In this document: positions 13,997 to 28,818 of the stretch, piece after piece
Layout of the letters: every line of letters starts with the position of its first letter
Numbering within the stretch: position 1 is the stretch's first letter
NCBI GenBank assembly: GCA_001771975.1
Contig: MERE01000180.1
Coordinates: forward strand, 1 to 44,419
Length of the DNA: 44,419 nt
Source: Betaproteobacteria bacterium RIFCSPLOWO2_02_FULL_68_150
GTDB lineage: Bacteria > Pseudomonadota > Gammaproteobacteria > Burkholderiales > SG8-39
Direction: 5' to 3'
Position numbers and translations under genes: made by a program
Notes under the pieces: generated by a model
The model's database searches: none
The model's input: only the letters and a program-made list of their open reading frames with translations
Told to the model about the DNA's origin: nothing

Positions 13997-15760
13997 ATGG
14001 AATCAGTCCAGTCCGACGTAGCCATAGTCGGCGCGGGGGGCGCGGGTTTGCGCGCCGCGATCGCGCTGGCGCAGTCCGATCCGAAACTCCGGATCGCCTT
14101 GATCTCGAAGGTCTATCCGATGCGCAGCCACACCTGCGCGGCCGAAGGCGGTGCCGCGGGGGTGATCAAGCCCGACGACAGCCTCGAGCATCATTTCAAC
14201 GACACCGTGGGCGGCGGCGACTGGCTGTGCGACCAGGACGCGGTCGACTATCTGGTGCAGGAGGCGCCCAAGGAGCTGATCCAGCTCGAGCACTGGGGCT
14301 GCCCCTGGAGCCGCGAGCCGGACGGCTCGGTGGCGGTGCGGCCCTTTGGCGGCATGAAGAAGCAGCGTACCTGGTTCGCCGCCGACAAGTCGGGCTTCCA
14401 CATCCTGCACACGCTGTTCCAGACCTCGCTGCAGTTCGCCTCGATCGAGCGCTTCGACGAGTATTACGTCACCGAGCTGCTGGTGCACGAGGGGCGCTGC
14501 GCCGGTGTGGTCGCGATCGAGATGCGCAGCGGCCAGATGCGGCGCTTCGATGCCCGCGCGCTGATCATCGCCGGCGGCGGCGCCGGCCGCATGTTCCCGT
14601 TCACCACCAACGGCGCCATCAAGACCGGCGACGGCATGGCGCTCGCCTACCGCGCCGGTGTCGCGCTGAAGGACATGGAGTTCGTGCAGTACCACCCCAC
14701 CGGGCTGCCGAGCACCGGCACGCTGCTGACCGAGGCCTGCCGCGGCGAAGGCGGCGTGCTGCTGAACAAGAACGGACGCCGCTTCCTGCAGGATTACGGC
14801 ATGGGTCCGGAGACGCCGCTCGGCAAGCCGGTCTTCAAGACGATGGAACTCGGCCCGCGCGACCGCGTCAGCCAGGCGTTCTGGCAGGAGCAGAAAAAAG
14901 GCAACATGATGCCGACGCAATGGGGCGACGCCATGCTGCTCGACATGCGCCATCTCGGCGAGAAGACGATCAACGAGCGGCTGCCGCTGGTGCGCGACAT
15001 GTCGATCAGCTACATGGGCGTCGACCCGGTCACCGACCCGGTGCCGGTGCGGCCGGTGGTGCATTACATGATGGGCGGCATCGACACCGACACGCGCGCA
15101 GCAACGCGCCTGCCGGGGCTGTTCGCCGCCGGCGAATGCGCCTGTGTCAGCATCAACGGCGCCAACCGTCTGGGCTCGAACTCGCTCACCGAGCTGCTGG
15201 TATTCGGGCGGCGCGCGGCGCTGAGCGCGCTGGAGTACGTCAAAGCGGGCGCGGCGCCGGTGAACGAGGGCGCGCGCGCGGCGCTGGCCACTGCGGCGCA
15301 GGGGCGCCTGCGTGAGCTGATGCAAAGGAGCGGCAGCGGCGAAACCGTTGCGGGCTTGCGCAAGGAGATGATGCAGACGATGGAGCAGAACGCGGGCATT
15401 TACCGCACCAGCGAAGGCCTCACCGAGGCCTGCGCCAAGCTCTCCGAGCTGCGCCGGCGCTATGCACGCATCGAGCTGCACGACAAGACCAACGTTTACA
15501 ACACCGACCTGCTGCAGGCGCTCGAGCTGGGCTCGATGCTCGATTGCGCCGAGGCGGTGACGCAGAGCGCGCTGGCGCGCCAGGAGTCGCGCGGCGCGCA
15601 CCAGCGACTCGATTTCACCGCGCGCGACGACGTCAAGTTCCTGCGCCATTCGCTGGCGCTCTACGCGCAGAACGAGCCGCCCCGCATCGACTATCGCGAC
15701 GTCGTCATCACCCGGTCGCAGCCGGGCGTGCGCGACTACTCGGGCGGGGGAGGCAAGTGA
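13997..15760 (+). CDS. frdA: Fumarate reductase flavoprotein subunit
   Basis: 587 aa. Near-colinear with E. coli FrdA as recalled: DVAIVGAGGAGLRAAIA..ISKVYPMRSHTCAAEGG..GGDWLCDQD..HWGCPWSR..RTWFAADKSGFHILHTLFQTSLQF..MEFVQYHPTGLP..CRGEGG..LQDYGMGPETPLG. Confidence 0.95.
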   Translation: MESVQSDVAIVGAGGAGLRAAIALAQSDPKLRIALISKVYPMRSHTCAAEGGAAGVIKPDDSLEHHFNDTVGGGDWLCDQDAVDYLVQEAPKELIQLEHWGCPWSREPDGSVAVRPFGGMKKQRTWFAADKSGFHILHTLFQTSLQFASIERFDEYYVTELLVHEGRCAGVVAIEMRSGQMRRFDARALIIAGGGAGRMFPFTTNGAIKTGDGMALAYRAGVALKDMEFVQYHPTGLPSTGTLLTEACRGEGGVLLNKNGRRFLQDYGMGPETPLGKPVFKTMELGPRDRVSQAFWQEQKKGNMMPTQWGDAMLLDMRHLGEKTINERLPLVRDMSISYMGVDPVTDPVPVRPVVHYMMGGIDTDTRAATRLPGLFAAGECACVSINGANRLGSNSLTELLVFGRRAALSALEYVKAGAAPVNEGARAALATAAQGRLRELMQRSGSGETVAGLRKEMMQTMEQNAGIYRTSEGLTEACAKLSELRRRYARIELHDKTNVYNTDLLQALELGSMLDCAEAVTQSALARQESRGAHQRLDFTARDDVKFLRHSLALYAQNEPPRIDYRDVVITRSQPGVRDYSGGGGK

Positions 15761-16503
15761 TGGGCGAGCGCCAAGTCGAGCTGGAGGTCCTGCGCTACAA
15801 CCCGGAGACCGACCGCGAGCCGCATTTTCAGCGCTATTCGGTCGCCTGCCGGGAAGAGTGGGTGGTGCTGGACGCCCTCAACCACGTCAAGGAGACGCTC
15901 GACCCGACGCTCAGCTACCGCTGGTCGTGCCACATGGCGGTGTGCGGCAGCTGCGGCATGATGGTCAACGGCGAGCCGAAGCTCGCCTGCAAGACCTTCC
16001 TGCGCAACTACCACGGCGTCATCCGCGTCGAGCCATTGCGCCATTTCCCGATCGAGCGGGACCTCGTGACCGTGATCGACGATTTCGTCGCCAAGCTGAC
16101 GCGCGTCAAGCCGTACCTGATTCCCAAGGAACCGAAGTCGGTCGAGGCGGGCGAGTACCGCCAGACGCCGGCGCAGTTGAAGCGCTACAAGCAGTTCACC
16201 CTGTGCATCAACTGCATGCTGTGCTACGCCGCCTGCCCCGAATACGGACTGATCCCGGACTACCTTGGCCCGGCGGCGCTCTCGCTCGCACACCGCTACA
16301 ACCAGGATTCGCGCGACGGCGGCCGCGGGGAGCGGCAGGAGGAGCTCGCGTCGAAGGAGGGCGTGTGGGAGTGCTCGTTCGTCGGCGCGTGCTCGGAAGT
16401 CTGTCCCGAGCACGTCGATCCGGCGGCCGCGATCCAGCAGGTGAAGATCAGGAGCACGCTGGACTGGTACCAGGAGCACTTGATGCCATGGCTGAAGAAA
16501 TGA
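15760..16503 (+). CDS. frdB: Fumarate reductase iron-sulfur subunit
   Basis: The ATG overlaps the frdA stop (TGATG). MGERQVELEVLRYNPETD.., 2Fe-2S cysteines SCHMAVCGSCGMMVNG, and 4Fe/3Fe clusters CINCMLCYAACP and CSFVGACSEVCP. Track ORF 15544..16503 is over-extended. Confidence 0.93.
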   Translation: MGERQVELEVLRYNPETDREPHFQRYSVACREEWVVLDALNHVKETLDPTLSYRWSCHMAVCGSCGMMVNGEPKLACKTFLRNYHGVIRVEPLRHFPIERDLVTVIDDFVAKLTRVKPYLIPKEPKSVEAGEYRQTPAQLKRYKQFTLCINCMLCYAACPEYGLIPDYLGPAALSLAHRYNQDSRDGGRGERQEELASKEGVWECSFVGACSEVCPEHVDPAAAIQQVKIRSTLDWYQEHLMPWLKK

Positions 16504-16889
16504 ACGGCAAGCCGTACGTACGCCCGATCACCTCGGAGTGGATCTTCCGGCACCCGCGCTACCTGCGCTACATGACGCGCGAATTTTCATGCCTCTTCAT
16601 CGGCGGCTACACGCTGCTGCTGATAGCGGGCCTGAAGAGTCTTTCGGAAGGCCGCGCAGCCTACGACGCATTCCTCGAGGCTCTCAAGAGCCCGGCGAGC
16701 ATCGTGTTCCAGGTCGTTGCGCTCGCGTTCGCCGCTTATCACAGCGTGACCTGGTTCGCGCTCACGCCGAAGGCGCTGCCGCTGCAGCTGGGCGAGGAGT
16801 TCGTGTCCGATGGCGCGATTTCCGGGGCGCACTACGTGGTCTGGGCCGTGTTGTCGCTGGGCATCTGGGTCCTTGCCGGAGCGTTCTGA
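16500..16889 (+). CDS. frdC: Fumarate reductase membrane anchor subunit C
   Basis: MNGKPYVRPITSEWIFRHPRYLRYMTREFS.. parallels E. coli FrdC ([29 protein letters not shown]). Three TM helices. ATGA overlap with the frdB stop. An alternative ATG lies at 16488. Confidence 0.85.
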   Translation: MNGKPYVRPITSEWIFRHPRYLRYMTREFSCLFIGGYTLLLIAGLKSLSEGRAAYDAFLEALKSPASIVFQVVALAFAAYHSVTWFALTPKALPLQLGEEFVSDGAISGAHYVVWAVLSLGIWVLAGAF

Positions 16890-16891
16890 CC

Positions 16892-17233
16892 ATGGCGAAA
16901 TCGAACAAGCCAATCGTTTGGGGTCCCTTCGCCGCGGGCGGGACGGTGACCGCTTTCGTGACTCCGGCGCTCATCGTGCTGACGCTGCTGGTGGCGCTCG
17001 GGGCGACCCCCGAGCTGCTGCAATACGACGCCCTGCTGGCGTTCATGCGGCATGGACTGGTCGAGGTGGTGGCCGCAGGCGTGGTCTTCGTTTCGCTCTG
17101 GAGCGCCGCGCACCGCCTGCGCATCACGTGCTACGACCTGGGCGTGAGGGCCGACACGCTGGTGGCGACAGTGGTGTACGCCGTGGCGCTCGCCGGCACC
17201 GCCGCTGCGATCGTGTACCTGTCGAGGCTTTAG
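16892..17233 (+). CDS. frdD: Fumarate reductase membrane anchor subunit D
   Basis: 113 aa. MAKSNKPIVWGPFAAGGTVTAFVTPALIVL.. parallels E. coli FrdD ([25 protein letters not shown]). Three TM helices. Confidence 0.85.
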   Translation: MAKSNKPIVWGPFAAGGTVTAFVTPALIVLTLLVALGATPELLQYDALLAFMRHGLVEVVAAGVVFVSLWSAAHRLRITCYDLGVRADTLVATVVYAVALAGTAAAIVYLSRL

Positions 17234-17237
17234 GGTG

Positions 17238-17265
17238 TTGACAGGTCGGGGCGCCGGCCTAAACT
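17238..17265 (+). promoter_or_regulatory. Sigma70-like promoter: TTGACA - 16 nt - TAAACT
   Basis: A consensus -35 (17238..17243) and a 4/6 -10 (17260..17265) sit in the 60-nt gap after frdD. They are followed by the GAAGGAGG SD and the ATG at 17301. Confidence 0.5.
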
Positions 17266-17300
17266 TGGCGCGCACAACTTTCTGAAGGAGGGTGCGGGAG

Positions 17301-18062
17301 ATGAATCCACCGCCCGTGGTCACGCGTGAGGTTGCGCGCGAAGAGCGTTTCAGCCTGGTCTGGACGAGGGAACTCAATCAGGTGTTCGCGGACGTCGCGC
17401 CGTATTACGACCGCGCCAACTACGTCGCCAGCCTTGGCCTGTGGGACTGGTTCCTGAGCAAGTTCATGGCCACCGTGGACATCCGCCCCGGCGAGCGGGT
17501 GCTCGACGTGTGCGCGGGAACCAATGCGATCGGCATTGCGCTGCTCAAGCGCGAGCCGACGCTCGAGGTGCACGCCATCGACCGCAGCCGGGAAATGCAG
17601 GAGGTCGGCCGCCAGCGCGCCGAGGCGCTGGGTTTGCGCATCCGCAGCACCATCGAGGACGTGCACGCGCTGCCGTTCCCCGACAACCATTTCGACGTCG
17701 TGACGCTGCAGTTCGCCTCGCGCCACCTGCGGGTGAAGCGGGTCTGGGGCGAGATGCTGCGCGTGCTCAAACCCGGCGGGCGCTTCTACCACTGCGACAT
17801 GCTGCGCCCCGCGAACCGCAGCGTGGAGACCCTGTATTACGGCTATCTGCGGTTCTGCCTCTGGTTCACCGGCTTCGTGTTCCGCAGCGGCCAGGCGGCG
17901 CTCAACTGCAAGCAGTACTTCATCGACGCGCTGCAGATGTTCTATTCGGCGGAGGAACTGTCGCACGTGCTGGAGGAACTGGGGTACTGCAACGTCACCT
18001 CGAGGACCGTGTTCTCCGGCATGATGGGCTTTCACCGCGCGGTCAAGCCGGGACAGCCCTAG
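17301..18062 (+). CDS. UbiE/MenG-family class I SAM-dependent methyltransferase-fold protein (candidate quinone-modifying enzyme)
   Basis: Colinear with UbiE/MenG: VFADVAPYYDRANYVASLGLWDWF..GERVLDVCAGTNAIGIAL..AIDRSREM..LPFPDNHFDVVTLQFASRHL..LKPGGRF. ATG 17301 is preferred over the track's GTG 17292 because GGAGG lies 8-9 nt upstream of the ATG. Confidence 0.85.
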   Translation: MNPPPVVTREVAREERFSLVWTRELNQVFADVAPYYDRANYVASLGLWDWFLSKFMATVDIRPGERVLDVCAGTNAIGIALLKREPTLEVHAIDRSREMQEVGRQRAEALGLRIRSTIEDVHALPFPDNHFDVVTLQFASRHLRVKRVWGEMLRVLKPGGRFYHCDMLRPANRSVETLYYGYLRFCLWFTGFVFRSGQAALNCKQYFIDALQMFYSAEELSHVLEELGYCNVTSRTVFSGMMGFHRAVKPGQP

Positions 18063-18074
18063 CCCGGGCTTCGC

Positions 18075-18716
18075 ATGGACCGCGCCGGGGCGCTGGCCGG
18101 CCTCAACCAGCGCCTCCTGGAGGCGTTCAGCCGCCGCACCACCGGCGCGCTGCGCGAAGTCCTTGCGCTGCGCGTGGCGCTGCCGCACATCGAGCCGTTT
18201 CTCGCCTTGAACGTCGCCAAGGAAGTGAAGAAGGACGCGCTCCTGATCAGGAGCGCGGCGCAGGCCGCGGCGGCGCCCGACGCGGCGCTGGCGCGCAGCC
18301 TGCTCGAGGAGGCGCGCGCCATCGACCGCGATTTCCTCGGCGACGTGGCGCGCTTTCCGGTGCGCATCGAGATTCCCTACGCGCGCATCGAGCCACTGCG
18401 CCTGCGGCGCATCGGGCGCGGGCTTGAACTGGCGCACCTGATCATCGCGGGCTGGCGCGGCGGACGCAAGCTGCGCGAGCTGCTGCCGCGCGACGCTCTC
18501 GAGCACCGCCTGCGCGAGCTGCTCGAGCTCTACGCCGAGGAAACGCAGGCGCTCAGCCACTCGGTCCAGCTGCCTGGCCCGCTCGCGCTGCTGCGCGAGC
18601 GCCTGGCGCGTGGCCTGCTGCGCGTGATGCGCGAGGCGGCGGGGCAGGTGTCGGCGCAGGCGGCACGCGCTGTGCACCGGCCGCGCCCGCGGGCGCTGCA
18701 GGAGCGCCCGGCGTGA
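18075..18716 (+). CDS. Hypothetical helical protein (213 aa), no family recognised
   Basis: Starts 12 nt after the methyltransferase stop. Strong G/C third-position bias in this frame. L/A/R/E-rich with no TM segment. The competing 472-aa minus-strand ORF also runs antisense across the methyltransferase and looks like a shadow ORF. Confidence 0.55.
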   Translation: MDRAGALAGLNQRLLEAFSRRTTGALREVLALRVALPHIEPFLALNVAKEVKKDALLIRSAAQAAAAPDAALARSLLEEARAIDRDFLGDVARFPVRIEIPYARIEPLRLRRIGRGLELAHLIIAGWRGGRKLRELLPRDALEHRLRELLELYAEETQALSHSVQLPGPLALLRERLARGLLRVMREAAGQVSAQAARAVHRPRPRALQERPA

Positions 18717-19402: not shown

Positions 19403-20122
19403 GTGGCTGATGCCCCGATGATTGCCCGCCGCGTTCCGCTCGCGCCGATGCAGCGCATGGCCGCCGAGCACCTCGCGCACAGCCTGCGCGAGAGCGTGCC
19501 GGTGTCGATCCACGGCGCAGCGGACGCCGAGGCGCTGGTCGCGCTGCGCGCGCGACTGAATGCCGACGCCTCGCGCGCCGGCCGGCCGCGCGTCACGCTC
19601 ACGCACCTGCTGGTGAAGGCGGTGGCGCAGGCGCTGCGCGCCCACGAGCACCTGAATGCCACGCTCGAGGGCAAGGTGCTGTGTGTCTACGCAGACGTCA
19701 ACATCGGTGTCGCGCTCGCGCTGGCCAACGGCGGCCTCGTCGTGCCGGTGATCCGCGGCGCGGATCGCCTGACGCTCGACGAAGTCGCCGCGATGGCCGC
19801 GGAACAGGAAGCGCGCGCCGCGGCCGGCAAGCTCCAGCTCGCCGACGTCCAGGGTGCGACCTTCACGATCTCGAACGGCGGCATGGTGCCGAGCGTGCTC
19901 TGGACGACGCCAATCGTGCCGCGCGGTCAGGCGGCGATCCTCGGCATCGGCGCAATGCACCAAGCAGCGGTCGTGCGCGAAGGTGCGGTGGTCGCGCGCC
20001 GCCTGCTGCCGACCAGCCTGACGTTCGATCATCGCCTGGTCAACGGCGTGCCGGCGGCGCGCTTTCTCGAAGGGGTGCACCGCCTCGTCGCCGAGGCCGA
20101 GCGCATCGAACTGGGCATCTGA
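19403..20122 (+). CDS. 2-oxoacid dehydrogenase E2 acyltransferase, catalytic domain only (no lipoyl or subunit-binding domain)
   Basis: 239 aa. It begins directly at the catalytic-domain entry motif RRVPLAPMQRM. GLVVPVIRGADRLTLDEVA, GATFTISNGGM, and the catalytic DHRLVNG are present. Confidence 0.88.
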   Translation: MADAPMIARRVPLAPMQRMAAEHLAHSLRESVPVSIHGAADAEALVALRARLNADASRAGRPRVTLTHLLVKAVAQALRAHEHLNATLEGKVLCVYADVNIGVALALANGGLVVPVIRGADRLTLDEVAAMAAEQEARAAAGKLQLADVQGATFTISNGGMVPSVLWTTPIVPRGQAAILGIGAMHQAAVVREGAVVARRLLPTSLTFDHRLVNGVPAARFLEGVHRLVAEAERIELGI

Positions 20123-20137
20123 CTGCAAGGAGAACTC

Positions 20138-20380
20138 ATGCTTCTGGAGATCCGCGTGCCGGAGATGGGCAACGACGCCAAGGAGGCGATTCTGGTCGCC
20201 TGGCACAGACAGCCGGGCGACGCCGTGGCGCAGGGCGAGCCGCTCGCCGACGTGATGACGGACAAGGTCAACGTGGAGATCGTCAGCCCCGCGGCGGGCA
20301 CGCTGAAGGAGACGCGCGCCGCGCCCGACGAGACGGTGCCGGTGGGTGCCGTGATCGCGATGCTGGAGGTCGCCGAATGA
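20138..20380 (+). CDS. Free-standing lipoyl-attachment domain protein (80 aa)
   Basis: Own AAGGAG SD. MLLEIRVPEMG..VAWHRQPGDAVAQGEPLADVMTDKVNVEIVSPAAGTL..VPVGAVIAMLEV. The TDK lipoyl-lysine motif sits at the hairpin position. It is not the AMKM biotinyl motif. Confidence 0.85.
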   Translation: MLLEIRVPEMGNDAKEAILVAWHRQPGDAVAQGEPLADVMTDKVNVEIVSPAAGTLKETRAAPDETVPVGAVIAMLEVAE

Positions 20381-21372
20381 ATGCGCAATTCGCCGAAGCG
20401 CGGGCGCGCGTCGCGGAAGACGGCGCGCTCCTGCGGAGCATGTACGAGCTGATGCTGCTGACACGCGAGATCGATCGCGTCGCGGGCAAGGCCGACGGCC
20501 ACTGGCACGCCTGCGAGGGTGAGGAAGCGGTGATCGCCGCCTGCTACAGCGGGCTGCGCCCGGACGATTTCGCCGTGCCGCACTATCGCGGCATGCTGCC
20601 CGCGTCGGTCGCGCGCGGTGCCGACTTGCGCGCGCTCCTCGCCGGGCTCGCGGGCAAGACGACGAGTCACAGCGGCGGGCGCTACCGCTCGGACGTCTGC
20701 GGGCCGATCGAGCACCGGGTGATCGGCCTGTACTCCGGTGCGCTCGGACCGACGCTCTCCTACGCCGCGGGCACCGCGCTCGCGGCGAAGCTCGATCGGC
20801 GCGATGCAGTGACGATCGCGGTATTCGGCGACGGCACGTCCAACCGCGGAGATTTTCATGAAGCGCTGAACCTTGCCGCGGTGCTGAAGCTCGGCGTGGT
20901 CTATGTCTGCCAGAACAACCAGTTCGCGATCTCGACGCCTGCCGCGCGCGGCGTGGGCGCGCGCTCGATCGCGGACCGCGCGCCGGGCTACGGCATACCG
21001 GGTGTCGCGGCGGACGGCAACGACGCGATCGGGCTGCGCGCCGCGGTCGAGATCGCGATCGAGCGCGCGCGCCGCGGCGACGGACCGACGCTCATCGAGG
21101 CGCTCACCTATCGCATCTCCGGACATCTCGTCGCGGATGCCGCGGACTATCGCCCGGCGGAGGACGTGGCGGCGTGGCGCTCGCGCGATCCGCTCGCGAG
21201 GCTGCAGCGCCACCTGCTGGAGTGCGGCCTGCTGAAGCGGGACGAGGACGAGCGCCTCGCGCGCGAAACGCGCGAACGCGTGGACGCGGCGATGGCGCAG
21301 GCGCAGGCGGACCCGGACCCCGGCGCCGACGCGCTCGGACTGCAAGCGGTTTTCGCAGCGGCGCGGTCATGA
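20377..21372 (+). CDS. TPP-dependent dehydrogenase E1 alpha subunit, divergent copy 1
   Basis: ATGA overlap with the lipoyl gene. The TPP motif is present: AVFGDGTSNRGDFHEALNLAAVLKLGVVYVCQNNQFAIS..YRISGH. Several otherwise conserved E1alpha motifs are absent (see findings). Track ORF 19681..21372 is over-extended. Confidence 0.85.
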   Translation: MNAQFAEARARVAEDGALLRSMYELMLLTREIDRVAGKADGHWHACEGEEAVIAACYSGLRPDDFAVPHYRGMLPASVARGADLRALLAGLAGKTTSHSGGRYRSDVCGPIEHRVIGLYSGALGPTLSYAAGTALAAKLDRRDAVTIAVFGDGTSNRGDFHEALNLAAVLKLGVVYVCQNNQFAISTPAARGVGARSIADRAPGYGIPGVAADGNDAIGLRAAVEIAIERARRGDGPTLIEALTYRISGHLVADAADYRPAEDVAAWRSRDPLARLQRHLLECGLLKRDEDERLARETRERVDAAMAQAQADPDPGADALGLQAVFAAARS

Positions 21373-22346
21373 TCCGCCAGACGATGCAGGAGGCCATCGT
21401 CGCCGGCATCGCCGAGGAAATGCGGCGCGATGCGGACGTCTTCATCATGGGCCTCGACATTGGCCGCTTCGGCGGCCCGCTCAACTCGTGCAAGGGATTG
21501 TGGGAGGAGTTCGGCGCCACCGGCCGGGTGATCGATACGCCGATCTCCGAGGGCGCAATCGTCGGCGCGGGCGTGGGTGCCGCGCTCGCCGGCAAGCGGC
21601 CGATCGTGGACATCATGTTCCTCGAGTACCTGCCGCTCGTCATCCAGCAGCTCGGCTGCGACGGTGGCGCGATGCACTACTACTCCGCAGGCAAGGCGCG
21701 CGTGCCGCTCGTCGTGCGCGCAAAGTACGGCGTCGGGCCGTATCACGGCCATCCTTACGACTTTCACGCGTGGCTCATGCAGACCCCCGGCGTGAAGATC
21801 GCAGTGCCGGCCACCGCGCGCGATGCGAAGGGCCTGATGAAGGCGGCGATCCGCGACGACAGTCCGGTGCTCTTCATGGAGCACATGGCGCTCTACCATG
21901 GCCTGCGCGACGCGATTCCGGAGGAGGACTACGTCGTGCCGCTCGGCGTCGCGGAGGTGAAGCGCGCAGGGCGCGACGTCACCGTCATTGCGTCGGCCGC
22001 GATGGTGCGCAGGGCGCTCGCCGCGGCGCAGGCGCTCGCGAAAGAGGGGATCGAGATCGAAGTCGTGGACCTGCGCAGCATCGTGCCGCTGGACGAGGCG
22101 ACGATCCTCGACTCGGTGCGCAAGACCGGCCGCGCGCTCGTCGTGCAGGAGACGGTGTGCTTCGGCGGCTCGACCGCCGAGGTCGCCGCGCTGATCGCCG
22201 AGCGGTCGTTCCGCGACCTGAAGGCTCCGGTGCGACGCCTTGGCACGGCGTACGTTCCCGTGCCTTTCGCGCGCAGCCTCGAGAAGGCCGCCGTCCCCGA
22301 CGACGCCGCGATCGTCGCGGCGGCAAGGGATCTCGTGTCGCAGTAG
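21369..22346 (+). CDS. Dehydrogenase E1 beta subunit, divergent copy 1
   Basis: ATGA overlap. MIRQTMQEAIVAGIAEEMRRDADVFIMGLDIG..RVIDTPISEGAIVG..PGVKIAVPATARDAKGLMKAAIRDDSPVLFMEH..VDLRSIVPLD. Confidence 0.87.
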   Translation: MIRQTMQEAIVAGIAEEMRRDADVFIMGLDIGRFGGPLNSCKGLWEEFGATGRVIDTPISEGAIVGAGVGAALAGKRPIVDIMFLEYLPLVIQQLGCDGGAMHYYSAGKARVPLVVRAKYGVGPYHGHPYDFHAWLMQTPGVKIAVPATARDAKGLMKAAIRDDSPVLFMEHMALYHGLRDAIPEEDYVVPLGVAEVKRAGRDVTVIASAAMVRRALAAAQALAKEGIEIEVVDLRSIVPLDEATILDSVRKTGRALVVQETVCFGGSTAEVAALIAERSFRDLKAPVRRLGTAYVPVPFARSLEKAAVPDDAAIVAAARDLVSQ

Positions 22347-22354
22347 AGCGCCCA

Positions 22355-23374
22355 TTGGTCACACTTTCGCTCGACGAGGGCCTTCGGCTGTATCGCACGA
22401 TGGCGCGCATCCGCGCCTTCGAGAACGCGGCGGAAGAGGCTTCCCGGGGCGGCGTTTCGGCCTTTGGCGCTGCGCTTTCCGCCAGCGTCAGGGTACGCGG
22501 ACCGCTGCATCTGTCGACCGGGCAGGAGGCGGTGGCGGCGGGCGTCTGCGCGCAGTTGACCACGGCCGACCTCATCACTTCGACGCACCGCGGCCACGGC
22601 CACACCATCGCCAAGGGTGCCTCGGTCGAGCGCATGATGGGCGAGCTCTTCGGCAAGGTGAGCGGCTGCAACGGCGGCAAGGGCGGCTCGATGCACATCG
22701 CCGACTTCTCGGTCGGGATGCTGGGCGCGAACGGCGTGGTTGCCGCGGGAATTCCGATCGCGGTGGGCGCCGCGCATGCGCTGAAACTCCGGCAGCGCAA
22801 TGCGCTCGTCGCGTGCTTTTTCGGCGACGGCGCGATCAATCGCGGTCCGTTTCTCGAAGGACTCAACTGGGCGGCGGTCCACGCGCTGCCCGTGCTCTTC
22901 GTCTGCGAGGACAATCGCTGGTCGGCGACGACCGCGACCGGCGCCATGACCGCGGGCGACGGGGCGCTGGCGCGTGCTGCCGGCATCGGTGTGCCGGGCG
23001 AGCGGGTGGACGGCAACGACGTCTTCGCGGTGCACGCTGCCGCAGCAGAACTGGTGGCCCAGGTCCGCGCCGGGCAAGGGCCGCGATTGCTGCATGCGAT
23101 CACGTACCGCGTGAAGGGCCACGTTTCGGTGGATCCGGCCACCTATCGCGACGGCGAGGAAGTGGACCGCGCGCTCCAGGACGATCCGATTCCGGCGGCC
23201 GCCGCGCGGCTGAGGGCGGCCGGCGTCGCAGCCGAAGCGCTCGCGCAGATCGCGCTGGAAGCGGAGCGGGAAGTGGCTGCGGCGCTTGCCGCCGCCTCGG
23301 CGGCGGCGTGGCCGGACCGGGCAGCGTCGTATTCGGACATCCAGGACACCGGGAGCGACCGTTGGCTTGTCTGA
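22355..23374 (+). CDS. TPP-dependent dehydrogenase E1 alpha subunit, canonical copy 2 (acetoin/pyruvate/BCKA-type)
   Basis: TTG start is inferred, because the conserved LSLDEGLRLYRTMARIRAFE lies upstream of the first ATG. LSTGQEAVAAG, THRGHGH, GKGGSMH, GDGAINRG..CEDNRW, YRVKGHVSVDP. Confidence 0.86.
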   Translation: MVTLSLDEGLRLYRTMARIRAFENAAEEASRGGVSAFGAALSASVRVRGPLHLSTGQEAVAAGVCAQLTTADLITSTHRGHGHTIAKGASVERMMGELFGKVSGCNGGKGGSMHIADFSVGMLGANGVVAAGIPIAVGAAHALKLRQRNALVACFFGDGAINRGPFLEGLNWAAVHALPVLFVCEDNRWSATTATGAMTAGDGALARAAGIGVPGERVDGNDVFAVHAAAAELVAQVRAGQGPRLLHAITYRVKGHVSVDPATYRDGEEVDRALQDDPIPAAAARLRAAGVAAEALAQIALEAEREVAAALAAASAAAWPDRAASYSDIQDTGSDRWLV

Positions 23375-24309
23375 GCTACGCGCAGGCGGGCTGCCTCGCG
23401 CTGGAACGGGCCATGGCGGCCGATCCTGCGGTCGTGGTGCTCGGCGAAGACGTCGGTCGCGGCGGCATCTTCGGCCAGTACCGCGGGCTGCAGCAGAAGT
23501 TCGGCACGGCGCGCGTCCTGGACACGCCGATCTCGGAGGCGACGATCATGGGCGCGGCGGTGGGCATGGCGCTCGCCGGGCTGAAGCCCGTCGTCGAAAT
23601 GCGCGTGGTGGACTTCGCGCTCTGCGCGATGGACGAAATCGTCAACCAGGCGGCGAAGGCGCGCTACATGTTCGGCGGACAGGGGCGCGTGCCGCTGGTG
23701 GCGCGGCTGCCGATCGGCATCTGGACCGGCTCGGCGGCGCAGCACTCGCAGAGCCTCGAAGCGTGGTTCGCGCACGTGCCGGGCCTGGTCGTCGTCACGC
23801 CCTCGAATCCGCAGGACAACTGCTCGCTGCTCGCCGCGTCGCTCGAATGCGGCGATCCGGTGATCTACATGGAGCACAAGGAATTGTGGACGGTGGAGGC
23901 CGAGGTTGATCCGACCGCGAAAGTGCCGCTCGGCCGCGCCAGCGTGCTGCGCGCCGGCGCAGACGTGACGCTCGTCACCTGGGCGCGCACGGTACAGCCG
24001 GCGCTCGAGGCCGCAACGGCCGCCGCCGCACGCGGCGTGTCGGCGGAAGTCATCGACCTTCGCACGCTATGGCCCTGGGATCGCGAGACCGTGCTGGCCT
24101 CGGCCGCGAGGACGCGCCGGCTGGTGGTCGCGCACGAGGCGGTGCGGGTCGCGGGCTTCGGTGCGGAGATCGCGGCCACGGTGGCCGAGGAACTCGGCAT
24201 ACCGGTGCGACGCGTCGGCGGCGCGCGCATCCCGGTCGGCTACTCGAAGGTGCTCGAAGATGCCGCACGCATCAGCGCGGCGGCGATCCTGGAGTCCCTG
24301 CTGCAATGA
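23362..24309 (+). CDS. Dehydrogenase E1 beta subunit, canonical copy 2
   Basis: TTG start 6 nt after GGGAG, with a 13-nt overlap onto E1alpha-2. LSYAQAGCLALERAMAADPAVVVLGEDVG..RVLDTPISEATIMG..QHSQSLEAWFAHVPGLVVVTPSNPQD..IDLRTLWPWD. Confidence 0.86.
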   Translation: MACLSYAQAGCLALERAMAADPAVVVLGEDVGRGGIFGQYRGLQQKFGTARVLDTPISEATIMGAAVGMALAGLKPVVEMRVVDFALCAMDEIVNQAAKARYMFGGQGRVPLVARLPIGIWTGSAAQHSQSLEAWFAHVPGLVVVTPSNPQDNCSLLAASLECGDPVIYMEHKELWTVEAEVDPTAKVPLGRASVLRAGADVTLVTWARTVQPALEAATAAAARGVSAEVIDLRTLWPWDRETVLASAARTRRLVVAHEAVRVAGFGAEIAATVAEELGIPVRRVGGARIPVGYSKVLEDAARISAAAILESLLQ

Positions 24310-24764
24310 CGCCGAAGCGTACGCCGGAGGACTGGATCGCCGCGCTCGGCATGGCGCTGCTGGCGCTCATCACCATGGCCAACGTGGTGGTCCGTTATCT
24401 GACCGACCAGTCGTTTGCGTGGACCGAGGAATTTTCAGTGTTCCTGCTGGTGCTGACGACCATGGCGGGAGCGTCCGCGGCGGCGCTGCGCGAGCGGCAC
24501 ATCCGCATCGAGTTCTTCCTCGATCGCGGGCCGCCCGCGCAGCGCCGCGCGCTGGCGGCGGGCGGGACGGCCCTGGCCGTGGTTTTCTTTCTCGCCTTCG
24601 CGGTGCTCACCGGCCGCATGGCGTGGGATGACTTTCGCTACGGCGAGACGACGATGGGCGTCGGTTTGCCGCGCTGGTGGTATACGGGGTGGGTGCCCGC
24701 GCTGTCACTCGTCATTGCGCTGCGCACCGCGCAGGCGCTGCGGCGGCTCCTGCGAAGCGCATGA
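24306..24764 (+). CDS. TRAP transporter small permease (DctQ-type)
   Basis: 152 aa. ATGA overlap with the E1beta-2 stop. Four TM helices. LITMANVVVRYLTDQSFAWTEEFSVFLLV is a typical DctQ signature. Confidence 0.85.
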   Translation: MTPKRTPEDWIAALGMALLALITMANVVVRYLTDQSFAWTEEFSVFLLVLTTMAGASAAALRERHIRIEFFLDRGPPAQRRALAAGGTALAVVFFLAFAVLTGRMAWDDFRYGETTMGVGLPRWWYTGWVPALSLVIALRTAQALRRLLRSA

Positions 24765-26059
24765 TCGGCACGCTGCTCTTCGCGATCTTTCTCGTCCTCA
24801 TGTTCGGCGGCGTGCCGATCGGCGTCGCGCTCGGCATCGGCGGCATGATTTCGATCGCGCTGGCGAACGCGGACGCGCAGTATTTCGGGCTGCTCGCGGC
24901 GCCGCAGAATTTCTACGCCAGCATCGCCAAATATCCGCTGCTTGCGCTGCCGATGTTCGTGCTGGTCGGCTCGATCTTCGACCGCTCGGGCGTGGCGCAG
25001 CGCCTCGTCACCTTTGCCGTCGCGGTCGTGGGGCGCGGTCCCGGCATGCTGCCGATGGTGGCGATTCTCGTCGCCATGATCCTCGGGGGAATCTCCGGCT
25101 CCGGACCGGCGAACGCCGCCGCCGTGGGCGGCGTCATGATCGCCGCCATGTCGCGGGCCGGCTACCCCGCGGCGTTTTCCGCTTCCATCGTCGGCGCGGC
25201 CGCGGCCACCGACATCCTGATTCCGCCTTCGATCGCGTTCGTCGTCTACAGCGTGATGGTCGCGGGGGCTTCGGTTCCGGCGATGTTTGCCGCGGGGATG
25301 GTTCCCGGCGTGCTCGCCGGGATCGCGCTGATCGCGCCGGCGGTCTGGCTTTCGCGCCGCAACGGCTTTGGCAGCCACGAAGCCGACGAGCCGCGCCCCC
25401 GGTTCTGGCGCAGCCTGCGCGAAGCGGCGTGGGGAATCGCCGCGCCGGTGCTGATCCTGGGCGGCATGCGGCTGGGCTGGTTCACGCCGACCGAGGCCGC
25501 GGTGGTGGCGGTGTTCTACGGGCTTTTCGTCGGGATGGCGGTCCACGGCACGATCGGCTGGAAGGATCTCTTCGACATCTTCCGCGACGCGGGAGAGATC
25601 TCCGCCGTGATCATGATCGTGCTGGGCCTGGCGGGGATCTTCGCCTACTCGGTGAATACGCTCGGGCTTGCCGATCCGCTGGTGAAGGCGGTCACCGGGA
25701 GCGGGCTCGGCAGCACCGGGGCGCTGCTCGCGGTGTTCGCGGTGCTGCTTTTCGTCGGGGTGTTCCTGGATGGCGTCTCGATCTTCCTGATTTTCATTCC
25801 GCTTCTCACGCCGCTCATGAACGCCTTCGGCTGGGACGTGGTATGGTTTGGCGTCGTGCTGACGATGGCCGTGGCGATCGGGCAGATCACGCCGCCGATG
25901 GCCGTGAACCTGATGGTCGCCTGCCGGATGGCCGGCGTGTCGATGGAAAGTACGCTGCCCTGGGTCGGGTGGCTGGTGGCGAGCTTCGTGCTCGCCGCGT
26001 TCGCCGTGATTTTCGCGCCGCCGCTCGCGCTCTGGCTGCCGCGGGCGCTCGGCTACTAG
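24761..26059 (+). CDS. TRAP transporter large permease (DctM-type)
   Basis: 432 aa from the ATG that overlaps the DctQ stop (ATGA). MIGTLLFAIFLVLMFGGVPIGVALGIGG..SGSGPANAAAVG.., polytopic. The track ORF starts 84 nt too early. Confidence 0.92.
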   Translation: MIGTLLFAIFLVLMFGGVPIGVALGIGGMISIALANADAQYFGLLAAPQNFYASIAKYPLLALPMFVLVGSIFDRSGVAQRLVTFAVAVVGRGPGMLPMVAILVAMILGGISGSGPANAAAVGGVMIAAMSRAGYPAAFSASIVGAAAATDILIPPSIAFVVYSVMVAGASVPAMFAAGMVPGVLAGIALIAPAVWLSRRNGFGSHEADEPRPRFWRSLREAAWGIAAPVLILGGMRLGWFTPTEAAVVAVFYGLFVGMAVHGTIGWKDLFDIFRDAGEISAVIMIVLGLAGIFAYSVNTLGLADPLVKAVTGSGLGSTGALLAVFAVLLFVGVFLDGVSIFLIFIPLLTPLMNAFGWDVVWFGVVLTMAVAIGQITPPMAVNLMVACRMAGVSMESTLPWVGWLVASFVLAAFAVIFAPPLALWLPRALGY

Positions 26060-26089
26060 AATGCGTCAACTCAACCGGGAGGCACCACC

Positions 26090-27115
26090 ATGAAACGTCG
26101 CGTTTTCCTCAAAGCCACCAGCGCCGCCGCCGGCGCGCTCGCGTTCCCCGCCATCGCGCTGGGGCAGCAGTACAAGACCGAGTACAAGATGTCTACCGTC
26201 GTCCCGCCCGTGTTCGCCTGGGGCAAGGGCGGCGAGATCTTCGCCAACCTCGTGCGAGAGCGCACGGGCGGCCGCATCAACATCAAGCAGTACCCGGGCG
26301 CGTCGCTGGTGCAGGGCGACCAGACGCGCGAGTTCTCGGCGATGCGTCAGGGCGTGATCGACGTGCTGTGCGGCGCGCCGATCAACTGGTACAGCACGGT
26401 GCGCGAAATCGCCGTGTTCACGCTGCCGTTCATCACGCCCGACCACAAGTCGCTCGATGCAGTGCTGGCGAGCAGGGAGATCATGGACGAGTACTTCGGC
26501 CTCGTGCGCAAGGCCGGCGCCGAGCCGATCGCGGTCGGCGAGACGGGTTTCCGGCAGATCAGCAACTCCAAGCGCCCGATCGCCAAGCCGGATGACCTGA
26601 AGGGCCTGAAGATCCGCGTCGTCGGCAGCCCGATGTACGGCGAGATCATGTCCGGCATGGGAGCGAACCCGACGTTCATGAGCTGGGCGGATGCGCAGCC
26701 GGCGCTCGCCTCGGGCGCGGTCGACGGGCAGGAGAATCCGCTCGAAGTGTTCATGGTGGGGAAGATCCATACCCTCGGGCAGAAGTTCGTCACCAAATGG
26801 AATTACTCCAACGACATCCTGCTCTTCGCCATCGCCGGTTCGATCTGGCAGAGCTGGAGCGCGCAGGACCAGGGCATCGTGCGCCAGGCCGCGCAGGACG
26901 CGGCCCGCGAGCAGATCGGCATGGTGCGCAAGTATTTCGCCGAGGACGTGGAAAAGGTGCGCGCACTGGGCGTCGAGGTGAACGTGCCGACACCGGCCGA
27001 GATGTCCGCCTGGCAGGCGGCGAACCGGGGCGTCTACGCGAAGTGGAAAGCGCAGGTCAATCCGGGCCTGATCTCGAAGATCGAGCAGGTCGTCGCGCAG
27101 TCGCGCAAGGGCTGA
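26090..27115 (+). CDS. TRAP transporter solute-binding protein (DctP family)
   Basis: 341 aa. Signal peptide MKRRVFLKATSAAAGALAFPAIALG. The ..GFRQISN.. Arg lies at the family's carboxylate-binding position. ..VDGQENPL.. is also present. Confidence 0.92.
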   Translation: MKRRVFLKATSAAAGALAFPAIALGQQYKTEYKMSTVVPPVFAWGKGGEIFANLVRERTGGRINIKQYPGASLVQGDQTREFSAMRQGVIDVLCGAPINWYSTVREIAVFTLPFITPDHKSLDAVLASREIMDEYFGLVRKAGAEPIAVGETGFRQISNSKRPIAKPDDLKGLKIRVVGSPMYGEIMSGMGANPTFMSWADAQPALASGAVDGQENPLEVFMVGKIHTLGQKFVTKWNYSNDILLFAIAGSIWQSWSAQDQGIVRQAAQDAAREQIGMVRKYFAEDVEKVRALGVEVNVPTPAEMSAWQAANRGVYAKWKAQVNPGLISKIEQVVAQSRKG

Positions 27116-27116
27116 G

Positions 27117-27135
27117 CGCGCCGATCGCGGGCGCG
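27117..27135 (+). other. GC-rich stem-loop (CGCGCC-gatcgcg-GGCGCG) immediately after the DctP-type stop
   Basis: A 6-bp perfect stem with a 7-nt loop, read directly. There is no following T-tract, so it is not a classical intrinsic terminator. It may be an intercistronic mRNA-stability element. Confidence 0.25.
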
Positions 27136-27188
27136 TCGCGCCGCTGAGCACTATCGTCACCGCGGACAGCGTCACGAGGCTCGGCGAC

Positions 27189-27980
27189 GTGGCGGGGCGG
27201 GTGCTCGTCGCCGGCTCTCATGGCGGAGTGATCGCGGCGCAGTATGGCGCGCTCGCCGGCGCACGCGCGTTGATCCTCAACGATGCCGGCATCGGCAGGG
27301 ATCGCGCCGGCGTCGCGGGACTCGACTGGCTGGACGCCATCGGAATGGCGGCCGCCACGGTGGATTGCATGAGCGCGCGCATCGCCGACGGCAGGGACAT
27401 GCTCGCGCGCGGCGTGATCAGCTACGTCAACGCCAGCGCAGCGCGTTGCGGCGTCGCTGCAGGCCAGGCTTGTGCGGACGCGGCCGCAAGGCTCGGGCGT
27501 GCACCGCTGCCGCACGGCAAGCCGGCACCCTTTGCCGAGAATCGCTGGCGCATGGCCGAGGGTCCGCCCGAAGTGTGGGCGATCGATTCGCTCGGCAAAG
27601 TGCAGCCCGAAGACGCCGGCCGCATCCTGGTGATCGGCTCGCACGGCGCACTGCTCGGCGGGCGGCGCGAGTCGGCGCTGCAGATCGCGGCGGTGGCGGT
27701 GGTGCTGAACGACGCGGGCGTCGGGGCGGACCGCGCGGGCATCGCGCATCTGCCGGTGCTGGGCGAAGGCGGCATTGCCGCCACCACGGTGGATTGCATG
27801 AGCGCGCGCATCGGCGACGGACGTTCGATGTGGGAAAGCGGCGTGCTCTCGTATCTCAATGACGTGGCGGAGCGGCTCGGCGCGAGGCGCGGCGAGCGGG
27901 TGCAGGATTTTGCTGCGCGAGTCACCGTGGCCCACGCCAAGCGACGGGCGCCGAAGCGCGATGCTCCTGGGCAATCGTGA
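27189..27980 (+). CDS. Internally duplicated protein of unknown family (two ~140-aa repeats); the true start may be upstream
   Basis: 263 aa from GTG 27189. Repeat 1: GRVLVAGSHGG..LILNDAGIGRDRAGVAGL..AAATVDCMSARIADGRDM..GVISYVN. Repeat 2: GRILVIGSHGA..VVLNDAGVGADRAGIAHL..AATTVDCMSARIGDGRSM..GVLSYLN. High GC3 in this frame. Confidence 0.6.
   Translation: MAGRVLVAGSHGGVIAAQYGALAGARALILNDAGIGRDRAGVAGLDWLDAIGMAAATVDCMSARIADGRDMLARGVISYVNASAARCGVAAGQACADAAARLGRAPLPHGKPAPFAENRWRMAEGPPEVWAIDSLGKVQPEDAGRILVIGSHGALLGGRRESALQIAAVAVVLNDAGVGADRAGIAHLPVLGEGGIAATTVDCMSARIGDGRSMWESGVLSYLNDVAERLGARRGERVQDFAARVTVAHAKRRAPKRDAPGQS
27355..27384 (+). repeat. 30-nt perfect direct repeat, copy 1 (inside the duplicated gene)
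   Basis: ccacggtggattgcatgagcgcgcgcatcg is identical to 27784..27813, at an offset of 429 nt (143 codons). Confidence 0.9.
27784..27813 (+). repeat. 30-nt perfect direct repeat, copy 2
   Basis: Identical to 27355..27384. It encodes the TVDCMSARI core of the second protein repeat. Confidence 0.9.
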
Positions 27981-28053
27981 GCGCGGCTACCGAGTGCGCT
28001 GCGGCGCACAACATGCGCTAGAATCGCACGATTTCACTGTGGGCCCGCGTCAG

Positions 28054-28818
28054 ATGCGCAACCGGCTGGTGGCCGGCAACTGGAAGCTGCACGGCAGCCG
28101 CACCGCGAACCGCGCCCTGCTCGAGGCGATCGCGGACGGCGGCGGTGCCGGCGGGCCGGTGCAGTGCGCGGTGTGCGTGCCGTTTCCGTACCTCGCCCAG
28201 ATGGCCGAGCTGCTCGGCGGGACGCGCATCGCGTGGGGCGCGCAGGATGTCAGCGAGCATGCCTCGGGCGCCTATACCGGGGAAGTGTCTGCGGCGATGC
28301 TCGCGGAGTTCGGTTGCCGCTACGTGCTGGTGGGGCATTCCGAGCGCCGCCAGCTGCACGCTGAGACGGACGCGGCGGTCGCGGCCAAGTTCGCCGCAGT
28401 GCAGGGCAGTGCGATGACGCCGGTCCTGTGCGTCGGCGAAACGCTGAGCGAGCGCGACAGCGGCAGGACCGAGACGGTCGTGGCGCGGCAGCTGGATGCG
28501 GTCATCGCGCGCTGCGGCGCCGAGGCGTTCGCCAATGCCGTGGTGGCGTACGAGCCGGTGTGGGCGATCGGCACCGGGCGCAACGCCACGCCGGAACAGG
28601 CGCAAGCGGTGCACGCGTTCGTGCGCGTGCGCCTTGCGGCGCTGGGCAGGGCCACCGCGCAGGGGCTTCGCATCCTGTACGGCGGCAGCGTGAAGGCGGC
28701 CAACGCGGCGGCGATTTTTGCGATGCCCGACGTCGACGGCGGGCTGATCGGCGGGGCCTCGCTGGTGGCGGAGGATTTCCTGGCAATCGCGCGCGCAGCG
28801 GCGCGCGGCCAGGGCTGA
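28054..28818 (+). CDS. tpiA: Triosephosphate isomerase
   Basis: 254 aa from the internal ATG: [41 protein letters not shown]. The track ORF is over-extended upstream. Confidence 0.95.

Follow-up and report, generated by a model that had tools for sequence, protein, structure and literature searches.

A gene at positions 27144..27980 of the forward strand, in a 44,419-nucleotide (nt) stretch of DNA from Betaproteobacteria bacterium RIFCSPLOWO2_02_FULL_68_150 (contig MERE01000180.1), encodes a two-repeat protein of a large and uncharacterised family. We refer to the protein as T and to the whole stretch as the window. As the phylogeny of its two halves indicates, T goes back to an ancient tandem duplication of a module of about 135 residues. 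Its homologues recur beside genes of thiamine-dependent enzymes, and the explanation we put first, while holding it tentatively, is that T takes part in thiamine-dependent oxo-acid catabolism, either as a soluble enzyme or as a ligand-binding partner.

The stretch 27144-27980 is a genuine gene for a conserved cytoplasmic protein. Its frame carries no stop codon from 27072 to 27980, which is farther upstream than the 27117 to which the sequence-only reading had found it open, and read from CTG 27144 to the stop TGA at 27978-27980 it encodes 278 residues. The G+C content of third codon positions (0.82, compared with 0.59 at second positions) fits a coding sequence in a window of 67.8% G+C. An independent contig, L004, carries the gene at 94% nt identity, and T aligns end to end with 23 close and 145 diverse homologues. 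The ratio of nonsynonymous to synonymous substitution (dN/dS) between the window and L004 is 0.48. Since the fragment of the neighbouring gene dctP gives 0.50 at the same low divergence, this value reflects low divergence and not decay, and relaxed selection or a pseudogene was rejected as an explanation for it.

The protein consists of two copies of one module with the motifs that had been listed from the sequence alone. Repeat 1 (27144..27563) runs through DSVT, GSHGG, NDAGIGRDRAG, SARIADG and GVISYVN into a linker, while repeat 2 (27564..27977) has DSLG, GSHGA, NDAGVGADRAG, SARIGDG and GVLSYLN in the same order and ends in a basic C-terminal tail; both boundaries come from self-alignment. 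The two halves of about 135 residues each are 51% identical across 103 residues (BLASTP, E 2e-28).

How widespread is such a protein? A collection of 5.8 billion proteins holds at least 2,433 homologues; those listed are 64-100% identical to T, 244-280 residues long, and either unnamed or called 'hypothetical'. A single-module profile compared with 1.84 billion representatives at 50% identity finds at least 1,526 of them at E <=1e-3 and 425 at E <=1e-30. The best 150 of the 1,526 all match the profile in two stretches, and 146 of them are 244-310 residues long. The two longest, P0285 (372 residues) and P0380 (566 residues), were considered as fusion proteins, or Rosetta stones, and set aside, their low-complexity N-terminal extensions resembling miscalled starts and not fused domains. 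Single-module relatives of 125-145 residues, which the sequence-only reading had left to a search, do exist, for example P0232 from Nitratireductor mangrovi and a protein from a Rubrivivax metagenome-assembled genome. The family ranges over Alpha- and Betaproteobacteria, Gemmatimonadota, Poribacteria, Verrucomicrobia and Streptomyces. The impression that the module could not be placed in any known family has held: no Pfam or NCBIfam model reaches its cut-off for T, and the family has no model of its own. Our literature search found no paper on it, only two incidental mentions of the domain family DUF1805, and nothing relevant for YunC or for terms describing the gene cassette.

Conservation was assessed on two sets of sequences, a close one (alignment A1; 24 sequences, of which 23 are homologues 63-90% identical to T) and a diverse one of 146 members that are about 31-52% identical to T and share about 40% mutual identity. 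The hallmark of the family is a pair of modules, each with DS, GSHG, NDAG-G-D-AG, SARIGD and G--S--N, within about 260-300 residues, and T shows all of these. Three residues are invariant in the diverse set (N96, S166 and D190) and nine more are at least 90% conserved (T11, S25, H26, D47, D148, S149, H167, S236 and N239). No cysteine column reaches 90% among the 146 members, and in single-module relatives and some orthologues His, Gly, Ser, Tyr or Phe stands in place of the motif cysteine. On both counts T is unlikely to have a disulfide redox centre.

Two stretches of the gene are identical at the DNA level over 30 nt, namely 27355..27384, encoding (A)TVDCMSARI, and 27784..27813, encoding (T)TVDCMSARI, both on the forward strand. 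They lie 429 nt apart, the identity cannot be extended by one base on either side, and the match is nested in a 63-nt direct repeat of 84% identity. The repeat had been taken to point to recent duplication or ongoing gene conversion. The identity itself is exact; the interpretation was not borne out. In a maximum-likelihood tree that joins 46 halves of each kind with nine short single-chain relatives (of which seven to eight are complete single modules), 40 first halves from distant bacteria form one clade (support 100/99) and 40 second halves another (100/98), and the halves of T fall inside the repeat-1 and repeat-2 clades respectively. Because the halves form separate clades, the duplication predates the spread of the family across phyla, with no concerted evolution. 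Codon choice tells the same story. At the 54 aligned positions where both halves have the same degenerate amino acid, the same codon is used in 26, compared with 30.9 expected from local codon usage. When the synonymous codons of both halves were re-drawn from the codon usage of the window with the proteins kept (20,000 trials), the DNA identity of the aligned halves was 0.622 +/- 0.020, and the observed 0.630 is no excess over it.

Might conversion nevertheless have homogenised the halves, or at least 30-60 nt around the SARIG motif? We regard this as very improbable, even if some observations speak for it. An in-register exact run of at least 30 nt appeared in only 0.64% of the trials (P = 0.0064), which is mildly unusual; among 21 Burkholderiales genes the codons of the motif agree between half 1 and half 2 slightly more within a genome (0.69) than between genomes (0.65; permutation p = 0.03); and one protein, P0291, is the only one in the tree whose two halves are sisters. 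Against this stand the separate ancient clades and the lack of any excess in shared codons or overall DNA identity. Moreover, the run was chosen post hoc from a 44-kilobase window, and the motif codons (GAT TGC ATG AGC GCG CGC ATC GGC) recur nearly unchanged in both halves of the 21 Burkholderiales orthologues, so that no genome-specific event is needed. The version in which whole halves were homogenised is refuted by the halves tree, the codon count, the back-translation simulation and the cross-genome comparison of the motif, while a short conversion tract may occasionally have formed at the motif. An assembly artefact, which the sequence-only reading had named as a possible undoing of the repeat, was rejected as well: the two stretches recur with a single mismatch in L004, an independent assembly, and the DNA at both sites is near-identical in other related genomes. 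The 30-nt identity, striking at first, is thus ordinary; it is an invariant motif under strong codon bias and marks no recent event.

Where does translation of T begin? The first canonical start on the forward strand is GTG at 27189..27191, which both the open reading frame (ORF) tool and the public annotation of a relative, P0003, take as the start. As had been seen from the sequence alone, no ATG, GTG or TTG precedes it in the frame, and the only alternative starts of translation table 11 in the homologous upstream zone are CTG 27144 and ATC 27153. The homology reported upstream of the GTG proved real: '..AAESVTxLxDVAGK' is conserved in homologues, most of which start about 9-12 residues before 'SVT' and have an ATG 22-28 codons ahead of the Gly of GSHG. 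A start at GTG 27189 would remove 15 residues including the DSVT motif, whose Thr is the conserved T11, and the first strand, which the AlphaFold model places at residues 4-7 and mirrors by a strand in half 2.

The comparison of related genomes at codon -23, counted from the G of GSHG, is instructive. This codon is ATG in L022 (followed by atc gcc gtc gtc), GTG in L024 (att gag atc gtc) and TTG in L031 (ccg gag atc gtc), and it is CTG in L003 and L021 (atc gag atc gtc), L027 (atc ggc atc gcc), L028 (atc gac gtc gtc), and the window and L004 (agc act/aag atc gtc). All six genomes with CTG have no canonical start in that zone. CTG at 27144..27146 (forward strand) appears to be the likeliest start because sister genomes have ATG, GTG or TTG in its place, and on these comparisons translation probably begins there. 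In L003 this CTG overlaps the called stop of an upstream S-adenosylmethionine-dependent methyltransferase gene as CTGA, the CTG counterpart of the classic ATGA overlap, in a layout as in translational coupling; L021, L027 and L028 have a common upstream sequence, and the CTGATC junction is conserved between them and L003.

A start at GTG 27189 seems unlikely to us, and one at ATC 27153 somewhat more so. There is also the view, equally unlikely as a whole, that one of these two codons is used or that the gene is decaying, its ATG lost and the upstream stretch an untranslated relic. GTG 27189 has a GAGG 9 nt ahead of it and is also where the called P0003 begins; CTG is a rare start codon, and nothing resembling a Shine-Dalgarno motif stands before CTG 27144. 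A decaying gene could also account for the dN/dS of 0.48 and for replaced consensus residues, as half 1 of T has SARIA for SARIG and a Tyr before the conserved Asn, where the A1 homologues nearly always have His. However, the stretch between CTG and GTG keeps the family sequence, including the Thr of DSVT, in all six genomes that lack a canonical start, and the sole canonical start in the region of L027, 4 codons before GSHG, would cut deeper into the conserved N-terminus. The GAGG is CAGG in L004, the dctP fragment has the same dN/dS as T, and the frame of T is intact. A start at CTG would mean that one sub-clade of Burkholderiales has a conserved CTG start, and that ORF tool and public gene calls alike drop 15 conserved residues.

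The fold was approached by structure prediction. With the 24 close sequences AlphaFold reaches a predicted local distance difference test score (pLDDT) of 81.8, and with the 146 diverse ones a pLDDT of 96.9 and a predicted template modelling score of 0.93. Each module is modelled as strand, strand-GSHG-helix, strand-NDAG, helix, strand-SARIGD, helix, strand, helix and helix. Foldseek comparison of both models with 350,542 PDB chains returned nothing with E <0.5. The only local match recurring with both is 1QW2, the DUF1805 protein TA1206 of Thermoplasma acidophilum, which ranks third for the better model (E 0.88, probability 0.63, TM-score on the target 0.44, 58 columns, root-mean-square deviation (rmsd) 2.6) and is local.

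Along the same lines, the DUF1805 profile PF08827 matches 112 of the 146 members below threshold, with a best E of 3.4e-9. For T itself the match has 17.1 bits and E 0.006 (residues 72-124 of P0001), short of the gathering score of 29.5 bits. About 55 C-terminal residues per module (strand, 'GxIS-xN', helix, 'Gv-xGm', helix) are involved, and the N-terminal strand-loop-helix part with GSHG and NDAG lies outside. PF08827 comprises 64 positions and 1QW2 is a chain of 102 residues, whereas T has two modules of about 135. The profile matches show that the C-terminal part of each module is remotely related to DUF1805/YunC, as sub-domain homology and not as membership, and this is the one known link of the family. 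To our knowledge DUF1805 has no known function, and we know of no described link between it and thiamine enzymes.

A second profile, PF00817 (IMS), is found below threshold in 85 of the 146 members (best E 8e-8) and falls on the same strand-helix-helix element of about 50 residues that ends each module. The element reads 'RGVIS-xN--A---GV--GM---A' and lies at T residues ~98-125 and ~241-268, in the window at about 27435-27520 and 27865-27950. It resembles Y-family polymerases in that 'RGVIShvNaaAaalGVraGM..eA' of T lines up with 'RGVIStaNYpARkfGVrsaMp' of DinB/Dpo4, with profile hits to PDB entries of DNA polymerase IV (Pol IV) at E 0.07 and Foldseek matches over 26-30 residues at rmsd 0.6-1.6. 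The remainder of the IMS profile is unmatched by T, so the likeness concerns the local element only. The strand-helix-helix motif appears to be common to T and DUF1805. Sequence-profile searches of the PDB found nothing with alignment A1, DepH at E = 1 with A2, and only the local Pol IV motif at E >=0.07 with A3.

The order of elements in the module invites another idea, raised already by the sequence-only reading, which saw a likeness to a small nucleotide- or cofactor-binding fold. In VLVAGSHGG, helix, ALILND, a strand, Gly-rich loop, helix, strand and acidic residue follow each other as in a dinucleotide-binding beta-alpha-beta unit, here with the loop G-S-H-G-G and the terminal N-D. T could then bind a nucleotide or cofactor, as a mini-Rossmann carrier of NAD, FAD or coenzyme A (CoA) that replaces E2/E3 as acceptor for E1, or it could relay phosphate through the His of GSHG in the manner of DhaM or EIIA-Man. 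Further hints in this direction are the DepH match, non-significant at E = 1, to an FAD-binding motif ('GGSHAG..'), the lack of an E3 gene in the window operon, and one divergent member encoded directly before split Dak1/Dak2 genes, operons of this type often carrying DhaM. We consider the idea improbable all the same. Despite a model of pLDDT 97, no Foldseek match to a Rossmann, flavodoxin, EIIA-Man or succinyl-CoA-synthetase structure was significant; those to the Rossmann proteins D-lactate dehydrogenase, DgpA1 and LarE span about 56 columns with probability 0.1-0.2. No Pfam nucleotide-binding family is found in the 146 members, and the lack of a cysteine column at 90% conservation speaks against a redox carrier of the disulfide type. 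The phospho-histidine domain in particular was rejected. PF03610 occurs in none of the 146 members and finds another gene (contig C210) in the window genome instead of T; hhalign gives a probability of 0.1 between the T module (298 sequences) and EIIA-Man (14 sequences); and the 50 best Foldseek matches include no EIIA-Man or DhaM structure.

More can be learned from the company that T keeps. We surveyed one genome per species, found 204 relatives and kept 80 loci, from Burkholderiales, many Alphaproteobacteria (Stellaceae, Acetobacteraceae including Caldovatus, and Rhodobacteraceae), Gemmatimonadales, Poribacteria, Candidatus Moanabacter and Streptomyces sp. DSM 40971. By tblastn with the window proteins, a pair of E1 alpha and beta genes lies within 6 kilobases of T in 51 of the 80, most commonly as E1alpha-E1beta-T on one strand, with intervening genes, divergent and downstream arrangements also represented. 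The sequence-only reading had placed T in an operon with E1, E2 and lipoyl proteins; the E1 link turns out to be general, whereas E2 and lipoyl genes accompany T in one other locus only (L027). Tripartite ATP-independent periplasmic (TRAP) transporter genes are found in about 12 of the loci, tpiA in Burkholderiales loci only.

Loci without E1 have a gene for an acetolactate-synthase-like thiamine enzyme of about 585 residues 3' of T, and the Caldovatus loci have neither partner nearby. The best NCBIfam model for this enzyme is PRK06112, at 406 bits and under the cut-off of 673. Its orthologues, 60-68% identical among loci, lie near T in 56 of the 80 loci and in nearly every one outside Burkholderiales, usually 20-190 nt downstream. 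The core cassette outside Burkholderiales is therefore E1alpha-E1beta-T-(acetolactate-synthase-like enzyme). A divergent member stands in L101 (3934-8296) in the order BKACE-T-Dak1-Dak2-BKACE with overlapping stops and starts, BKACE being a beta-keto-acid cleavage enzyme, together with a short-chain dehydrogenase/reductase (SDR), a glyoxalase-like protein and a transporter of the major facilitator superfamily; the cluster resembles an operon for the catabolism of ketones or keto acids and seems to be undescribed. Another divergent member lies 3' of a dehydrogenase gene and beside TctABC transporters. Candidates for further conserved neighbours were discarded, either because they are alternative-frame artefacts of GC-rich DNA (neighbour clusters c3, c4, c15, c19, c29 and c43) or because each occurs in only 4-12 loci (SDR, luciferase-like monooxygenase, glutathione S-transferase and LeuA).

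Among single-module relatives, one of 124 residues overlaps the start of a 73-residue Biotin_lipoyl gene, and in a related contig the two form one ORF of 207 residues (L007 8001-8578; L006 8001-8624). The single ORF could reflect either a true fusion or a frameshift from long reads, and the arrangement may hint at an interaction with lipoyl carriers.

Is T then a subunit? It could be a non-catalytic accessory or regulatory protein that tunes the activity or assembly of the acetolactate-synthase-like protein, of E1alpha/beta or of both, comparable in role, though not in its fold, with the acetolactate synthase small subunit or the E3-binding protein. We think this unlikely, yet deserving of more weight than the cofactor or relay idea. 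T adjoins the acetolactate-synthase-like gene in almost all loci outside Burkholderiales, often at tens of nt, and it overlaps the E1beta stop in L001. A small pseudo-dimer with two equivalent faces would suit bridging, and a free lipoyl/biotinyl domain is encoded next to single-module relatives or fused with them. On the other side, the partners, which range from an E1 heterotetramer and the acetolactate-synthase-like enzyme to BKACE, DhaK/L and a dehydrogenase, are unrelated in architecture. What is invariant in T is Ser, His, Asp and Asn and not surface hydrophobics, and T contains no ACT, PSBD or lipoyl domain. Among the 40 genomes nearest to that of the window, T lies beside the orthologue of the second E1beta in G002, G006 and G016. 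G003, G004, G009 and G011 have the orthologue but no T, and G021 has T but no orthologue. That each is found without the other argues that T is not a fixed subunit, and the Caldovatus loci, with neither partner nearby, point the same way.

This brings us back to T as a soluble enzyme or ligand-binding partner. Its recurrent partners, two unrelated thiamine-dependent classes and BKACE, all perform C-C chemistry next to a carbonyl. T might work with those thiamine-diphosphate enzymes by which C-C bonds adjacent to a carbonyl are formed or cleaved, and it would act on a labile oxo- or hydroxy-acid or acyloin intermediate of such pathways. The pseudo-dimer could form two equivalent polar pockets of Ser-His, Asp, Arg and Asn. 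In the window genome, T may serve the TRAP-imported substrate of a split E1/E2/lipoyl system. We favour an enzyme or ligand binder over a fixed structural subunit because the partners vary, T can occur alone, and polar residues are conserved in both halves.

Several points weigh against this explanation. The arguments for a catalytic role, all drawn from sequence, are the conserved polar residues and the varied neighbours, T having no characterised homologue, and the pockets are placed by motif positions alone. T itself departs from the consensus at the SARIA and Tyr positions described above. The acetolactate-synthase-like partner is absent from the window genome and its close relatives, and the window's 87%-complete assembly holds only paralogues of that enzyme at 28-33% identity. 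The tight coupling to the acetolactate-synthase-like gene and to E1beta, whose stop and T overlap by 8 nt in L001, is likewise compatible with a stoichiometric subunit.

A bolder proposal, on balance doubtful, is that T founds a new class, a pseudo-dimeric alpha/beta fold with no solved relative that partners thiamine-dependent C-C-cleaving enzymes. Two versions fit. In the first (a), T would be a non-homologous enzyme acting on labile alpha-hydroxy-beta-keto acids or acyloins, for example by decarboxylation, isomerisation or tautomerisation. In the second (b), it would serve an E1 alpha/beta pair as a new acceptor or adaptor module, with which the pair could run without the classical E2/E3 core. 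If either is true, E1alpha-E1beta-T-(acetolactate-synthase-like enzyme) would be an unrecognised and widespread cassette of oxo-acid catabolism.

In the window itself, T follows a 'dissociated' set of 2-oxoacid dehydrogenase genes (19403-24309) with two different E1 pairs, a layout also seen in L027. On the forward strand these are a stand-alone E2 catalytic domain of 239 residues (19403-20122; Pfam 2-oxoacid_dh), a free lipoyl domain of 80 residues (20138-20380; Biotin_lipoyl), a first E1 alpha/beta pair (20377-22346; E1_dh, Transket_pyr), and a second, pyruvate dehydrogenase (PDH)-like pair (E1_dh, Transket_pyr, Transketolase_C) with E1 alpha at about 22400-23374 and E1 beta at 23362-24309. 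It is the orthologues of this second thiamine-dependent pair that accompany T in other genomes. All genes of the set remain under NCBIfam equivalog cut-offs, the second E1 pair in its matches to PDH E1 models, and Pfam and NCBIfam scans of the window operon found no E3 gene. Between E1 beta and T lie the genes of a TRAP transporter, DctQ, DctM and DctP (24306..27115, forward strand; Pfam DctQ, DctM, DctP), with in-frame start candidates at 24306 and 24761. A scan of 26900-28150 revealed no promoter-like or terminator-like sites between dctP, T and tpiA.

The full order in the window is frdABCD, a UbiE-like methyltransferase gene, a 213-residue gene, MarR, E2, lipoyl, E1 pair 1, E1 pair 2, DctQ, DctM, DctP, T and tpiA, and downstream ORFs together with the Pfam-annotated loci L001-L003 indicate secG and nuo genes after tpiA. 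The fumarate reductase genes frdA, frdC and frdD, with frdB presumably between them, and the UbiE/COQ5-type methyltransferase gene occupy 13997-18062; in L003 the frd-methyltransferase block stands between T and tpiA. The 213-residue ORF (18075-18716) has a coding-like third-position G+C of 0.92 and no Pfam or NCBIfam match, and its homologues (51-56% identity) lie directly 5' of tpiA in L027, L028, L033 and L035 and beside T in L031. Comparison of the window with L004 over 27144-28560 gives 94% identity for dctP-T, with a dS of about 0.06-0.10, and a dS of 0.84 and dN of 0.15 for the 5' half of tpiA. These values suggest that a boundary of recombination or transfer runs between T and tpiA, and a variable glmM-tpiA island seems to move independently of its conserved flanks.

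What makes T worth pursuing is the undescribed family, with at least 1,526 clusters at 50% identity, more than this locus. Its position beside two unrelated thiamine-diphosphate enzyme classes and BKACE points to an overlooked step or component in the bacterial catabolism of oxo acids or acyloins. Cultured carriers exist in Caldovatus sediminis, Caldovatus aquaticus and Streptomyces sp. DSM 40971.

Known accessory proteins of thiamine enzymes offer a useful comparison. Acetolactate synthase has a small subunit, IlvN/IlvH, acetoin operons carry AcoX, and in bud operons the gene of acetolactate decarboxylase, BudA/AlsD, precedes the synthase gene. T resembles these in being small and encoded beside, often upstream of, an acetolactate-synthase-like gene and an E1 pair. 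The likeness is one of gene position only, since no relation in sequence or fold connects T to any of them, and ACT, ALS_ss_C, NAD-kinase and AAL_decarboxy gave no Pfam match at E up to 0.05 in the 146 members. From the E2, E3 and E3-binding proteins of 2-oxoacid dehydrogenase complexes T differs as well, in having no cysteine column of at least 90% conservation and in meeting E2 and lipoyl genes in a single other locus of the 80; neither T nor the 146 members match lipoyl, PSBD, 2-oxoacid_dh or pyridine-nucleotide-disulfide oxidoreductase models of Pfam or NCBIfam. The resemblance to these complexes lies in the genes around T: in the window it shares one operon with two E1 pairs, a lone E2 domain and a free lipoyl domain, with no E3, and elsewhere a lipoyl/biotinyl domain follows a single-module relative or is fused to it.

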